This document shows, one piece after another, positions 1 to 8,213 of a DNA stretch of 64,000 nucleotides. Position 1 is the stretch's first letter. The number at the start of each line of letters is the position of its first letter. A model generated the notes under the pieces. The model saw only the letters and a list, made by a program, of their open reading frames with translations. It did not search any database and was not told where the DNA came from. Both the position numbers and the translations under genes were made by a program. The stretch is from a virus. The DNA lies in IMG/VR virus record IMGVR_UViG_3300042507_004023. One strand, given 5' to 3'.

Positions 1-1
1 A

Positions 2-103
2 GGTTTCGTAGCAGTTTGTGGTAAGACATGTAGTATCGTGAAACTTGTTGACCGCAACGAGTTCTCGCGCAACAACTTTAATCTAGCAAAGGAATGGAAG
101 TGA
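2..103 (+). CDS. 3' end of a conserved T4-like phage protein (DUF6267-like), truncated by the window edge
   Basis: Frame from nt 2 reads GFVAVCGKTCSIVKLVDRNEFSRNNFNLAKEWK*. VKLVDRxEFSRxNF resembles the C-terminus of the protein that usually precedes the cytidylyltransferase in T4-like aquatic phages (recalled, not searched). Confidence 0.6.
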   Translation, partial: GFVAVCGKTCSIVKLVDRNEFSRNNFNLAKEWK

Positions 104-3084
104 AAAAACTCTCACAACTCATCACCGAAGCCCCGAAGAAAGAAAAGTCAATTGTTATTGGCGTTGGACGCTTTAATCCTCCAACCACAGGACACGAAGT
201 TCTTGTAAACAAAGTGATGACGGAAGCACAAAAGATTGGTGCAGAGTTCTGTGTTTACGCTTCATACTCACAAGACCCAAAGAAGAATCCGCTAGACGCG
301 AAAACTAAACTTGAGACTTTAAAGAAGTTCTTCCCAAAGATGAAGTTCCAACTGATGCCAAAGCCTTTTCCAAACAAGGACGGCAAGACAGTTGCAGGGC
401 CTTATGCTATTGCACAAAAGTTGAGTGATGCAGGATATACTCGCGTTCACATTGTGACTGGCGCAGACCACATCGCGGAATACAACAAGATTAAGCAATA
501 CATTGACCTTGACCCAAAAAGCACCGAGGGCTACAAGTTCTCAGACTTCAAGGTGATTAGTGCTGGCAACCGCGACCCTGATGCGGAAGGTGTGCAGGGC
601 ATGTCGGCATCCAAGATGCGTAAGGCGGTGTTTGACGGCGATTACGATGCGTTCCTTAAAGGAGTTCCTGCTCATGTGAGCAAGGCGGATGCCAAGAAGA
701 TATTCATGGCCGTGAAAAAGGGAATGCAACTAAAGGAAGAATGGCTATGGGAAGAAAAGTCATCTGATGTAACTCTGCTTTGTCTGACTTCCGCTGAAGG
801 CAGCACAGACGGCTCAAGCATTGAAAAGATGGAAAAGTCTTGCAAGAAAAAGGGCATAGAATTCCATACTGTAAAGATGAAGTATGCTCACATCAATCCG
901 ATGGAAGCAAACGGAGATAAGATAGTCATTCAGATTACTGAAGGCGAAGAAAAGAAAAAGATTACCATAAGCCCGCGTGACACTCTTTGCTTTGTGCGTG
1001 GCGGTGTAATGAACTCGGAACTTGGAATTGGTCTCGCCACAATTCTACAAAATAACGGTGTGTTCATGGTTAACGAGAAGGGAGCAATGGAGTTGTGTGC
1101 AAACAAACTGCAAACCGCTCTTGCCCTTCAGAAGTATAACCTGCCACACCCAAGAACTGCATTTGTTTCCGATGAAGACTCCGTGGAAAACGCGATGAAG
1201 GCTATCGGCGGCAAGTATCCTGTAGTAGTTAAAACTGTTACAGGAGCAGAAGGTATCGGTGTTTCTATTATTGAAAGCGAGAAGTCACTACGCTCGGTTC
1301 TACAATCCCTGTGGAAGTTTGGTGCAGAAGTAATTCTGCAAGAGTTCCTGCCAGGCTTTAAGAACGATGTTCGTAGCATCGTATTAAATGGCAAGATTTT
1401 TGCTTGTGCAAAGCGGGACAAGGCTAAGGGAGACTTCCGAACCAATATTGCTAGGGGTTCCTCAGGGGGCGCATTCAAGTTATCTCCAGAAGAGATTGAA
1501 CTTGTAGAAAAGGTTGCACTTGTGAGTAAGTGCTATTATGTTGGCGTTGACCATGTTGTAGTTGACGGTAAACCTTATATCATCGAGATGAACGCTTCAC
1601 CTGGTAGCGGTAATGTTTACACGCTATACGATGGAGGCAAACCAACCAAAGAAGTGGAAGGTCAAGGTTTGATGGATGCTTTGATTGAACATGTAGGTAA
1701 TAAAAGTAATTGGAAACTATTCAGTAATGTTGCAGTATCAGAAAAGATTACGGTTGATGGAGTAGAATACAACGCGAAAGTGGATACCGGCAATAGCGGT
1801 TACAATTCTATTGATGCAAAAGATATCAAGATTAACGAAAAGAATCATACTGTAACCTTTAAAATTAACGATAAAACCATAACCAAAGATATCGCTAGTC
1901 GAATCAAGATTAAGCGAGGTGGAACTGAAGAACGAGAAATTCGTCCTGTTGTATTCATGGATGTGAAATTTGGCGGCAGAGAATACAAGAATGTTAAGTT
2001 TTCATTAACTAACAGACAGCACATGGAATACAAAGTTTTGATAGGACTTCGTTTCTTGCGTCAAACTGGTATGCAAGTTGACCCGAAAGATATGGCTGCT
2101 GCAAAACCAGAACCAAAAACAGAGGAGTTCGCAATGATTGAAGGAAAAGCCCCTGCAAGCCCAAAAGATAAAGAAACTGGATTACCAAAGAAATATGTTT
2201 CAGGATTAAGTCAAGCGGATGCCAAGGCTAGAGTTCAACAGTTTGCTGCTCGTAAGGCTCGTTCAGATTCAGACCCAAAGGCTTGGAAAAAACTACCAGG
2301 CGACCCCGAAAAAACTGCTCGCCGTTCCAAGTATTCTGTAGCGTTTGCGAAAAAGTTTGGAACCAAAGCAGAAGCATTTGAACTGCAAGAAATTTTAGAT
2401 GAGGCGGTTCGCTTGGATGATTGCGACAAAATTGCAACCCGAATCGAAAAGGCTCGTCATATGCAGGCTAAAGCAGGAAGCCCTGAAGAACAAACCGCAT
2501 GGGAAGTGTATATCGAAGAACAGAAGCGAGCCATGTATGCGGAACACGCTCCTAAAGTTTCCTCCACTCTAGAACAAGAGTTTGAGTGGATGATGTATGA
2601 GCATACCGATGAAAACAGTTTTGCCAGAAAGATTTACAAAGAAGTGTTGGAAATTGGAACCAACAAGATTCGTAAAACTTACGCTAAAGATACACCCGGT
2701 CAAGTCGCAGAAGAAACTGATGATGAAGAAAAAGATCGTATCTACAAAGAATGGTCTAAACTTGTGAACATGGGAGCCAAAGAACTTCAGAATTTTATAG
2801 ATTCAGAAGATGGGAAAGCGGCAGGATTGTCTCGTAAGGAAGCAGGCAAAGCAGGAACTGGTGGAGGTAAGATTACCTCGGGACGCGATTCGGCTCGTGC
2901 TATTGTCCGAATGCTTGGCAAGAAAAAAGATGATTGGCAGACAGGAGACTGGAAATGGGCAAACAAGCAAATTTCATTTATCAGCCGCATGAAGGGAGCC
3001 AAAGGCCCACTTCGTGACGATAAAGGCGAACCAACTCGTAAACTACTAGCCCTTAAGATTTGGGGACACAATCCGGAGAAATGA
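100..3084 (+). CDS. Multidomain polyprotein: HIGH-family nucleotidyltransferase + RimK-like ATP-grasp ligase + retropepsin-like protease + DUF5824-like segment + DUF3140-like domain
   Basis: GRFNPPTTGH (166-195); ATP-grasp motifs NKLQT, PVVVKTVTGAEGIGV, ILQEF, DVRSIV, FRTNIARG, GVD, IIEMNASPG; protease AKVDTG (DTG 1783-1791); C-terminal LVNMGAKEL...LKIWGHNP. Start probably GTG at 100 (AAGGA at 89-93; GTGA overlap with the upstream stop) rather than ATG at 94. Confidence 0.8.
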   Translation: MKKLSQLITEAPKKEKSIVIGVGRFNPPTTGHEVLVNKVMTEAQKIGAEFCVYASYSQDPKKNPLDAKTKLETLKKFFPKMKFQLMPKPFPNKDGKTVAGPYAIAQKLSDAGYTRVHIVTGADHIAEYNKIKQYIDLDPKSTEGYKFSDFKVISAGNRDPDAEGVQGMSASKMRKAVFDGDYDAFLKGVPAHVSKADAKKIFMAVKKGMQLKEEWLWEEKSSDVTLLCLTSAEGSTDGSSIEKMEKSCKKKGIEFHTVKMKYAHINPMEANGDKIVIQITEGEEKKKITISPRDTLCFVRGGVMNSELGIGLATILQNNGVFMVNEKGAMELCANKLQTALALQKYNLPHPRTAFVSDEDSVENAMKAIGGKYPVVVKTVTGAEGIGVSIIESEKSLRSVLQSLWKFGAEVILQEFLPGFKNDVRSIVLNGKIFACAKRDKAKGDFRTNIARGSSGGAFKLSPEEIELVEKVALVSKCYYVGVDHVVVDGKPYIIEMNASPGSGNVYTLYDGGKPTKEVEGQGLMDALIEHVGNKSNWKLFSNVAVSEKITVDGVEYNAKVDTGNSGYNSIDAKDIKINEKNHTVTFKINDKTITKDIASRIKIKRGGTEEREIRPVVFMDVKFGGREYKNVKFSLTNRQHMEYKVLIGLRFLRQTGMQVDPKDMAAAKPEPKTEEFAMIEGKAPASPKDKETGLPKKYVSGLSQADAKARVQQFAARKARSDSDPKAWKKLPGDPEKTARRSKYSVAFAKKFGTKAEAFELQEILDEAVRLDDCDKIATRIEKARHMQAKAGSPEEQTAWEVYIEEQKRAMYAEHAPKVSSTLEQEFEWMMYEHTDENSFARKIYKEVLEIGTNKIRKTYAKDTPGQVAEETDDEEKDRIYKEWSKLVNMGAKELQNFIDSEDGKAAGLSRKEAGKAGTGGGKITSGRDSARAIVRMLGKKKDDWQTGDWKWANKQISFISRMKGAKGPLRDDKGEPTRKLLALKIWGHNPEK

Positions 3085-3085
3085 C

Positions 3086-3346
3086 ATGAAACGCTTTAAA
3101 GATTTAAAAACTGAACTAGAATTAACAGAAAGCAAAAAGGCTTTACAAAACAAAGCCAAGCAATCTGGTGTTTCATATGGAATTTTAAAACAAGTGTATG
3201 ACCGAGGTATGGCGGCTTGGAAGGGCGGGCATCGTCCAGGTGCAACTCCTCAGCAATGGGCTTTGGCTAGAGTTAATTCGTTCCTGACAGGTGGGAAAAC
3301 CCGAAGAACCGCTGATGCAGACCTTTGGAAGAAAGCCAAGGGATAA
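3086..3346 (+). CDS. Small basic protein, DUF5824-like
   Basis: KQVYDRGMAAWKGGHRPGATPQQWALARVNSF motif recalled from T4-like phages and large eukaryotic DNA viruses; N-terminus MKRFKDL...LTE. Confidence 0.65.
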   Translation: MKRFKDLKTELELTESKKALQNKAKQSGVSYGILKQVYDRGMAAWKGGHRPGATPQQWALARVNSFLTGGKTRRTADADLWKKAKG

Positions 3347-3399: not shown

Positions 3400-3930
3400 A
3401 TGCACAACTCACCAATCAGCAAAGAATTTTATGATAGCATCACAAATGTTCTCGTTGGCAAGACAACCGTAAAAGTTGAACTTCCCGAGTCGCTAAAAGA
3501 AGCAGCCAAGGCGGCCGCAACCGAATTAAAGACGCTCAACGAAAGCGTTATGGTTGCAGAAACAAGGCGTAACATTCTACGCAAGCACCTGAAAGAGGGT
3601 GCTGCTAAGTGTGGTTGCTCGTTAACACCAGAAATGGTGGTGCGTTTTGATGAGTTGGTAAATGAAGCCGATGTTAAAATGCCAACACAAAAGGCAGCAT
3701 TGGCTACTCCCGCTGAAGTGAAGAACAAGACTGCTCCAAAGGGTGGTGCATCGAGTGCAGAAGCAAGCAAGTTGGCTACTCCCGCTAAAGCCACTGCTGC
3801 CATTAAAACCGCTGGTATGAAAGAAGAAACTCAACCATCACAGATTGAATTGGGTCTTCGTGAATTTTTGACTCAACTTTCTGAAGAAGAAGTTGCAACC
3901 CTTCGCAACATCATCAACGAAACTCGCTAA
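3400..3930 (+). CDS. Hypothetical Ala/Lys/Glu-rich protein, possible prohead core or internal protein
   Basis: 176 aa with AAGGAG RBS; several (L/I/V/M)-x-E motifs (LKE, LNE, VNE, MKE, INE); internal repeat LATPA. Confidence 0.55.
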   Translation: MHNSPISKEFYDSITNVLVGKTTVKVELPESLKEAAKAAATELKTLNESVMVAETRRNILRKHLKEGAAKCGCSLTPEMVVRFDELVNEADVKMPTQKAALATPAEVKNKTAPKGGASSAEASKLATPAKATAAIKTAGMKEETQPSQIELGLREFLTQLSEEEVATLRNIINETR

Positions 3931-7832: not shown

Positions 7833-8213
7833 ATGAAACCATTCCGTAAATTCGTTGAAGCCATCACTACCGATATCGAGTATGTGAAAAAGAATGCAGG
7901 CTCGTATCAGTATCGTGGAGCCGAGTTTGTGTGGGTGGCTTACCAAGGCGACAAGATTGTGAAGACTGGCAAGATGGGTAGTGCTTCTTTAGAAGACGCG
8001 AAAGCAGATGCCAAACAAATTCTTGCTGCTGTAGACGGAGTTGACCGAATTGAAATCTTGGGCAAAGACGATAAAGTGCTGGCTACCGTGGAAGAAACCA
8101 TGACAGAAATTAGCGGCACAGAACCTGCAATGGATTTGGGTGCGTTAACTAAACCAGGCGGTTCAGGTAAAGCCGCGAAAGCAAAAGTAAAACGACCAGA
8201 TAACCCCCGATAA
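7833..8213 (+). CDS. Hypothetical protein with capsid-targeting-like N-terminus
   Basis: Starts MKPFRKFVEA when ATG 7833 is used; follows a late motif. Confidence 0.55.
   Translation: MKPFRKFVEAITTDIEYVKKNAGSYQYRGAEFVWVAYQGDKIVKTGKMGSASLEDAKADAKQILAAVDGVDRIEILGKDDKVLATVEETMTEISGTEPAMDLGALTKPGGSGKAAKAKVKRPDNPR

Follow-up and report, generated by a model that had tools for sequence, protein, structure and literature searches.

In bacteriophage T4, the internal proteins and Alt are targeted to the head, processed by the gp21 protease, and ejected with the DNA (PMC9026906, PMC3012670). The gene analysed here occupies positions 94-3084 of a 64,000-nucleotide stretch of viral DNA (IMG/VR record IMGVR_UViG_3300042507_004023; the whole stretch is called the window below), and it resembles T4 IPI, IPII, IPIII, and Alt in its short leader, which is alike in length and pattern and ends in (I)-x-E followed by Ala, in its basic proposed cargo, in belonging to a T4-like phage and, as with Alt, in having enzymes as the proposed cargo. 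It is an open frame of 996 codons on the plus strand, as are all of its parts described below, with a product of about 110 kDa, and on balance we read it as a capsid-targeted cargo polyprotein that would be cut in the prohead and ejected with the DNA. Each of the known T4 cargo proteins (10-76 kDa) consists of one module, whereas here four to five unrelated modules stand behind one leader, with candidate processing sites at the joints; moreover, an HxGH transferase, a RimK-RimB pair, and DUF3140 are not known T4 cargo.

The polyvalent proteins, from phages and conjugative elements, offer a second comparison, as they too combine unrelated effector and enzyme domains in a single chain, often together with a processing peptidase, and are predicted to accompany the DNA (Iyer et al., 2017, PMC5512222). 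Both the multidomain architecture and an embedded peptidase are present in the window protein, for which delivery with the DNA is a prediction. The peptidase built into the polyvalent proteins is a zincin, whereas here the head protease is predicted to cut linker motifs. The survey of these proteins gives 2-15 effector domains per protein and states that the T4-like Alt family is missing from genuine polyvalent proteins; the term 'RimK' is absent from its text, and the domains of the window protein were not found there (PMC5512222). The cyanophage protein T4-GC190 is 41-45% identical to the first module of the window protein and has the same upstream neighbour and the same leader, but it is 385-388 residues long, contains a spacer, ends in another type of C-terminal domain, and lacks RimK-RimB and DUF3140. 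The bacterial RimBK hybrid (Little et al., 2025, PMC11957791) likewise couples a RimK-family ligase with a DTG-bearing PF05618 retropepsin; its order is reversed, whereas here RimK is followed by RimB and the pair is phage-encoded, leader-tagged, and placed inside a larger protein. The delivery principle (T4 IPI-III and Alt) and the multi-effector format (polyvalent proteins) are already known. Our literature search found the capsid-targeting sequence linked to cyanophages in a passing review remark and nowhere else, and returned no description of a phage RimK-RimB cargo.

The window belongs to a T4-like myovirus, with baseplate genes of the gp5, gp6, gp8, gp25, gp48, and gp53 type, and also encodes a primase, ThyX, and ribonucleotide reductase; a megablast comparison of its first 20 kb with cultured phages gave no match. 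The polyprotein gene is present at 99% identity on six independent metagenome contigs and has more than 1700 homologues, of 547-1743 residues, in aquatic metagenomes, and is thus no assembly artefact. Residue numbers follow the frame from ATG 94, so that the leader described below spans residues 3-12. Translation likely starts at GTG 100, with the sequence AAAGGA at 88-93, 6 nt upstream of this codon, and the proteins of several close relatives begin at the codon equivalent to it.

Read from GTG 100, the first ten residues (100-129) form a capsid-targeting-like leader with Leu4, Leu7, Ile8, and Glu10, ending in I-T-E with Ala next. This matches the leaders of the T4 internal proteins (NC_000866), where IPII and IPIII share a ten-residue leader ending in I-A-E before Ala and IPI has a nineteen-residue leader ending in I-T-E before Ala. 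Mutagenesis of the T4 leader has shown residues 4 and 7 to serve mainly in targeting and residues 8 and 10 in processing, and beta-galactosidase fusions have been packaged through this leader (PMC9026906). The window protein has the same arrangement of hydrophobic residues at 4 and 7, (L/I)-x-E at 8-10, and a small residue after it. Across the family the leader follows a consensus of about M-K-x-F-x-x-x-(I/L)-x-E-A; of the 32 family representatives, 25 have the motif, and in 21 the Glu is followed by Ala. It is rare in the window: of 1059 candidate starts, only 17 fit even a relaxed form of the pattern, the real gene starts among them being those of the polyprotein, gene 3086, and gene 7833. 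The same leader is found on 60% of the stand-alone RimK-RimB proteins and on 73% of the DUF3140 proteins that stand alone, whereas the share is 8% in bacterial RimK and 10-22% in shuffled sequences, and in cyanophages S-RIM8 and S-SM1 some 70 low-complexity residues lie between the leader and the transferase domain. From this gap, its occurrence on unrelated proteins, and its rarity among the starts of the window, we regard the leader as a separate signal and no part of the transferase fold.

Profile matches confirm that several recognizable modules share the one frame, as a first-pass annotation of the sequence had proposed. The first (residues 13-215; 130-738) is a nucleotidyltransferase of the HxGH type, for which the profile matches extend over residues 3-224 (phrog_3041, E 1.6e-53; phrog_395, E 3.8e-45). 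The leader that it shares with the cyanophage 'cytidyltransferase', the 41-45% identity, and the synteny with the upstream neighbour GC71 identify it as the orthologue of T4-GC190, a core gene of cyanophages. Its superfamily is that of NMNAT and the cytidylyltransferases; the PF01467 match is below the cut-off in the window protein (15.5 vs 21) and above it in the S-RIM8 orthologue, and no solved relative was found by sequence. The second module (766-2088) is a RimK alpha-L-glutamate ligase, with pre-ATP-grasp and ATP-grasp parts, fused to a RimB-like retropepsin. RimK spans residues 243-504 (TIGR00768, 145.4 bits vs a cut-off of 143.4; PF08443, E 3.6e-29, 102 bits vs 21) and scores below the cut-off of the S6-ligase equivalog (82 vs 331), so we do not assign its substrate. 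The RimB/RloA-type retropepsin (PF05618) lies at residues 556-666, with 48 bits vs a cut-off of 27, and falls below the RloA equivalog cut-offs. The best solved relatives of the unit are the Pseudomonas and E. coli RimK proteins and the PF05618 proteins 9g58/9g59. Over 35 homologues, down to 45% identity, the catalytic residues of all three enzymes are invariant, or in the transferase nearly so: TxGH and SxSxxR of the transferase (T31, G33, H34, S171, S173, and R176), the ATP-grasp Lys, Glu, and Asn of RimK (K380, E417, E498, and N500), and D564-T565-G566 of the protease. By homology, the RimK-RimB unit would add and trim alpha-linked Glu tails at protein C-termini, for which ribosomal protein S6 is the known target.

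The remainder of the protein is basic and helical. A DUF5824-N-like basic module (residues ~686-745) and a region that is helical in both predicted models (residues 746-850) together occupy 2149-2643; phrog_38321 matches residues 689-724, and the DUF5824-N identity is inferred from relatives, in that the same module in relative P0042 matches DUF5824 positions 1-55. The frame ends in a DUF3140/DUF6321 basic module (residues 876-996, pI 9.6; 2719-3084 with the stop codon), in which DUF3140 (PF11338) is matched at residues 886-975 with 32.8 bits vs a cut-off of 25, and DUF6321 is matched weakly at residues 956-990. The DUF3140 module is the most conserved part of the family.

The RimK and protease domains had been listed by the first-pass annotation as separate enzymes, a view that we do not retain. 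The segment between them (residues 505-550) is conserved and is structured in our AlphaFold model of the polyprotein, which was built on a 35-sequence alignment and has a mean predicted local distance difference test score (pLDDT) of 73, and the two domains stay joined in all of the stand-alone forms; a cut site at this position was rejected on these grounds. RimK and protease are therefore one linkerless unit, and the protein would comprise about four to five pieces, not one per domain.

The presence of a protease in the chain raises the question of whether the polyprotein is processed, in the manner of Gag-Pol, by its own RimB-like retropepsin in place of the prohead protease. RimB trims runs of at least six Glu, internal ones included, and stimulates RimK (PMC11957791), and the DTG motif (residues 564-566) is invariant in the family. 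We also observed that 14 of the 32 representatives (for example P0027, P0042, P0044, P0048, and P0061) have an uninterrupted run of 6-7 Glu, which lies some 17 residues beyond the RimB-like domain; this run conforms to the published recognition rule of RimB, so that self-cleavage or self-priming is possible in those relatives. The poly-Glu run of these relatives itself directly precedes an L-x-E, whereas in the window protein the longest Glu run in the linker after the retropepsin is 2 and the other joints also lack Glu runs. In addition, RimK and RimB are known to function as a pair, for which self-processing need not be invoked, and we consider self-processing of the window protein very improbable.

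In the AlphaFold model, the pLDDT falls below 50 at residues 1-14, 215-224, 661-690, and 850-875, segments that are thus predicted to be disordered. All of the (L/I/M)-x-E motifs that had been noted in the sequence are present, namely ITE12 before Ala, LKE215, LWE220, MIE683 before Gly, LQE766, LDE770 before Ala, and VLE853, to which we add VAE873; ITE12, LKE215/LWE220, MIE683, and VLE853/VAE873 all lie inside the low-confidence segments, in keeping with the junction placement proposed for the first five of them. The first joint (residues 211-224; 724-765) carries LKE215 and LWE220, which are found in 32/32 and 31/32 representatives, respectively; across the 35 aligned sequences E215 never changes and the conservation of E220 is at least 90%, whereas the next five to eight residues vary freely. 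The second (residues 661-690; 2074-2163; pLDDT 35-39) carries MIE683 followed by Gly. A column-based count of this motif gave 1/32 and was spoiled by indels, and we used an anchor-based count in its place: [LIVMF]xE stands directly upstream of the DUF5824-N module in all 20 representatives that have this module, whatever precedes it, against a shuffled value of 0.49, and Ala follows the Glu in 14 of the 20. At the third joint (residues 850-875; 2641-2718), with VLE853 and VAE873, a [LIVMF]xE motif occurs within 4 columns of position 873 in 25 of the 32 representatives.

The first-pass annotation had made its case depend on these motifs being more frequent at the junctions than inside the domains, and this was borne out in the family and only weakly in the single protein. 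In the low-confidence segments of the window protein, the odds ratio is 2.5 for [LIM]xE (p 0.11, not significant) and 3.3 for [LIVM]xE (p 0.02); the single sequence leaves the matter undecided, and the family has to decide. Composition-controlled shuffles of representatives less than 80% identical gave, for [LIVM]xE[AGS] in the modular C-terminal region, 81 observed motifs against 38.7 +/- 5.9 expected, an effect size of about two-fold, which is the useful number here because the sequences are related and the z-scores and counts overstate their independence. The enzyme domains had 63 such motifs against 68.7 expected, and DUF3140 (27 representatives) had none against 10.4 expected. Neither the Asp version of the motif nor its reverse was enriched in the same shuffles. 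When the alignment columns were divided more simply, according to their conservation, the density per 100 residues was 1.08 motifs in the low-conservation columns vs 0.25 in the conserved ones.

The suggestion that the modules should occur elsewhere as separate open reading frames (ORFs) with MKxF-type starts of their own was confirmed in other phages and in metagenomic proteins. The transferase is found as its own leader-bearing ORF in marine cyanomyoviruses, and RimK-RimB in Pelagibacter phage Mosig and in many metagenomic proteins of 460-500 residues, also with the leader; DUF3140 forms proteins of 125-140 residues that begin with a decapeptide very close to the T4 leader, and the C-terminal half of DUF5824 is the leader-bearing gene directly downstream in the window. 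The internal Glu residues stand in the same register as those of the separate leaders: the Glu before RimK is 5-8 residues ahead of the first strand, as is the leader Glu of stand-alone RimK-RimB, and the Glu before DUF3140 is 9-10 residues ahead of the conserved YKxW, as in stand-alone DUF3140 proteins. Owing to this shared register, the fusion looks like leader-bearing genes that have been joined head to tail with their processing sites kept. Cassettes are accommodated downstream of the protease, where relatives of 1100-1330 residues carry one to three extra modules, and the boundaries of the inserted modules in these long relatives are (I/L/V)-x-E followed by Ala-Asp or Ala-Asn.

Orthologues of the first module have been detected in virus particles. 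T4-GC190 was found in purified S-SM1 virions (Sullivan et al., 2010, PMC3037559), with 25 peptide counts in Table S8 of that study, and a cytidylyltransferase was found in CsCl-purified virions of S-CREM2, where cytidyltransferases are described as frequent in cyanophage virion proteomes (PMC10665884). Both S-SM1 and Mosig encode a gp21 homologue (Peptidase_S77, PF03420), and when their gp23 proteins are aligned to T4 gp23, (L)-T/S-E stands at the T4 propeptide cut. As this motif is common to T4, S-SM1, and Mosig, the specificity of the prohead protease is likely conserved in aquatic T4-like phages. The T4 sites that we checked were L-T-E before Ala in gp23, L-R-E before Ser in gp24, and those of the internal proteins, all with Ala or Ser after the Glu; the cut positions in these proteins we take from established T4 knowledge. 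Neither gp21 (PF03420, T4 gp21) nor gp23 (PF07068, T4 gp23) was found in five related IMG/VR records of 33-145 kb. The same search finds both genes in S-SM1 and Mosig, which indicates that the five fragments simply lack the head module.

The arrangement of the gene and its upstream partner would be consistent with late production of the polyprotein. GTG 100 overlaps the TGA stop codon (101-103) of the upstream gene as GTGA, a layout typical of translational coupling, through which the polyprotein would be coupled to this gene. Its 3' end occupies 1-103 (+) of the window; the complete ORF, in the 99%-identical locus L007 (L007:8796-10010), encodes a ligase-like protein of 404 residues with KxDG, a ligase-type motif of nucleotidyl transfer. 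It is homologous to S-SM1 T4-GC71 (E 4e-22), which likewise precedes the cytidyltransferase gene. In relatives at 99, 88, 86, and 53% identity, the late-promoter motif NATAAATA is found a few bases ahead of the point where this upstream gene begins. The flanks of NATAAATA differ among these relatives while the motif itself stays, which points to late transcription, as far as a promoter prediction can. As a separate observation, the pair of ligase-like gene followed by transferase has been kept from the cyanophages to the present phage.

A number of observations weigh against the interpretation of the gene as a packaged and processed cargo polyprotein, and those at the joints concern the cutting. 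LQE766 and LDE770, which had also been placed at a junction, lie inside a predicted helix, and are kept in at most half of the 32 representatives, with VLE in 5/32; the junction placement lacks support for LQE/LDE and is weakened by poor conservation for VLE. The residue after both LKE215 and LWE220 is Glu, unlike the Ala, Ser, or Gly of verified T4 sites. The conserved junction motifs could be fusion relics or core-binding elements, not cut sites. The protein may then be packaged and lose its leader, yet remain whole at 110 kDa, much as Alt of T4 keeps a size of about 70 kDa, the junction motifs being relics of old leaders or extra elements that bind the core. The junction before RimK resembles an entire leader minus its Met, as expected from fused leader-bearing genes, and packaging without processing is described for polyvalent proteins, the virion RNA polymerase of N4 among them (PMC5512222). 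Sequence relics with no function would be expected to erode, yet E215 has been kept in all sequences down to 45% identity although the linker residues around it vary; the motif before DUF5824-N is present in every representative with this module regardless of what precedes it, DUF3140 is depleted of the motif, and an exposed (L/I)xE is likely to be cut in a prohead filled with gp21. An uncut packaged protein is, in our estimation, rather unlikely.

The other observations on this side concern the packaging. The gene sits among genes of replication and nucleotide metabolism, among them helicase, primase, ThyX, and ribonucleotide reductase, and the window does not extend to the genes of the prohead protease and the capsid. 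In locus L007 a sigma-70-like promoter is found 2.4 kb upstream. The authors of the S-CREM2 study caution that the virion signal may be carry-over of an abundant protein (PMC10665884), and the motif statistics of the single protein are weak. Gp066 of Yersinia phage YerA41 (L002:5731-7152), a stand-alone RimK-RimB homologue, has been annotated as a structural protein from particle proteomics; we discount this label as weak evidence, since ribonucleotide reductase is present in the same particles and YerA41 is not T4-like. The neighbouring genes, the sigma-70-like promoter, the carry-over caveat, and the weak statistics would agree with an ordinary multidomain auxiliary enzyme of the cytoplasm that is never packaged, its leader and Glu motifs being features of helices or of translation initiation and the virion detections of its orthologues contamination. 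Such an enzyme would leave unexplained that the same leader stands on unrelated stand-alone modules and is absent from bacterial RimK, that in cyanophages it is detached from the fold, and that NATAAATA is conserved upstream; nor does any metabolic logic join the fused enzymes, which also occur singly. We therefore consider a purely cytoplasmic role unlikely.

Taken together, the leader, the joints, and the virion detections suggest the following course for a capsid-targeted cargo polyprotein. The gene and the ligase-like gene upstream would share a late transcript, and translation of the polyprotein would be coupled to that of its upstream partner. While the prohead assembles, the ten-residue leader would bind its scaffolding core in the manner of the T4 internal-protein leader, and a gp21-type prohead protease, which cuts after the Glu of (L/I/V)-x-E, would remove it. 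The same protease would cut the exposed joints at about 215/220, 683, and 873, to give a nucleotidyltransferase of 22 kDa, a RimK-RimB unit of 51 kDa, a basic and helical piece of about 21 kDa, and a DUF3140 module of 14 kDa, all of them predicted to be basic (pI 8.6-9.6). The pieces would leave the head with the DNA, and the enzymes would be active in the host as soon as infection begins. Packaging in the head is the part of this scheme that we hold to be probable, whereas for cleavage at the internal joints we find the case evenly poised.

RimK adds alpha-linked Glu onto a protein C-terminus that ends in Glu (PMC11957791). As each cut by gp21 leaves a fragment ending in Glu, the type of C-terminus used by RimK, the RimK-RimB unit could in principle add poly-Glu tails to the cleaved cargo or core peptides and trim them. 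We regard it as doubtful that the head protease and the cargo form one system in this way, in which RimK-RimB would tail the cleaved cargo or core peptides in the prohead or after ejection, or would rewrite the tail of host S6.

For the C-terminal modules of the polyprotein, a profile search of the PDB gave nothing, Foldseek against the PDB gave nothing under E 1, VIA-align yielded generic helical matches alone (Z at most 7.4), and the ESM Atlas returned the DUF3140 cluster itself and nothing else; a literature search turned up no publication naming DUF3140. Cultured phages match only the last ~30 residues of this region. When the model of residues 686-996 was compared with BFVD, the best match was a protein from a haloarchaeal tailed virus that bears the name prohead protease (borderline, with E 1e-3 over 146 columns), and the next matches were DUF6321 proteins of uncultured phages. 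This hints, as a lead only, at a link between the predicted DUF3140/DUF6321 fold and head assembly. Other leader-tagged proteins likewise end in a DUF3140 module, including a 5'-nucleotidase (PF06941), a lipocalin (PF08212), and a family of 220 residues (P0237, P0242, P0244, P0172-P0212), and as it is appended to several such proteins it may be a general head-cargo or DNA-associated module. A divergent subfamily of about 1158 residues (P0116, P0118, P0121) lacks the DUF5824-N module and has an insert of about 200 residues with D-G-H-H-R-W; by eye alone this insert recalls the ParB/sulfiredoxin-type domains typical of polyvalent proteins, and Pfam gave no significant match.

Directly downstream, 3086-3346 (+) encodes a protein of 86 residues with its own capsid-targeting-like leader, which matches the C-terminal half of DUF5824 (PF19141, E 4e-19, profile positions 59-123). 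The product also matches the C-terminus of the phrog_3041 'cytidyltransferase' profile, where it is fused to the transferase. A single Pfam family, DUF5824, is in this way split here, with its N-terminal half inside the polyprotein and its C-terminal half in the adjacent leader-bearing gene. The ORF at 3400-3930 (176 residues) has no family match; it contains several internal (L/V)-x-E motifs followed by Ala or Ser, and one of these, V-N-E before A-D, is similar to the sequences that separate modules in relatives of the polyprotein. Further along, the ORF at 7833-8213 (126 residues) has a capsid-targeting-like leader, with F-V-E before Ala, and starts a few bases after CTAAATA.

If the cargo polyprotein is as we propose, the T4 internal-protein system would no longer be limited to Alt and small anti-restriction proteins but would include a modular type of polyprotein that is widespread, in which unrelated enzymes are swapped between protease sites behind a single targeting tag. 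This would explain the recurrence of the 'cytidyltransferase', a core gene of marine cyanomyoviruses, in virion proteomes. It would also add a new injected activity, a RimK/RimB pair that writes and erases glutamate and may act on the host ribosome at infection; were S6 rewritten after injection, translation would be re-programmed from the first minute of infection, and tailing directed at either the cargo or the ribosome would represent a new class of phage-delivered writer and eraser. For the uncultured T4-like phages, the leader and the grammar of the cut sites would provide a simple rule by which injected proteins may be predicted.

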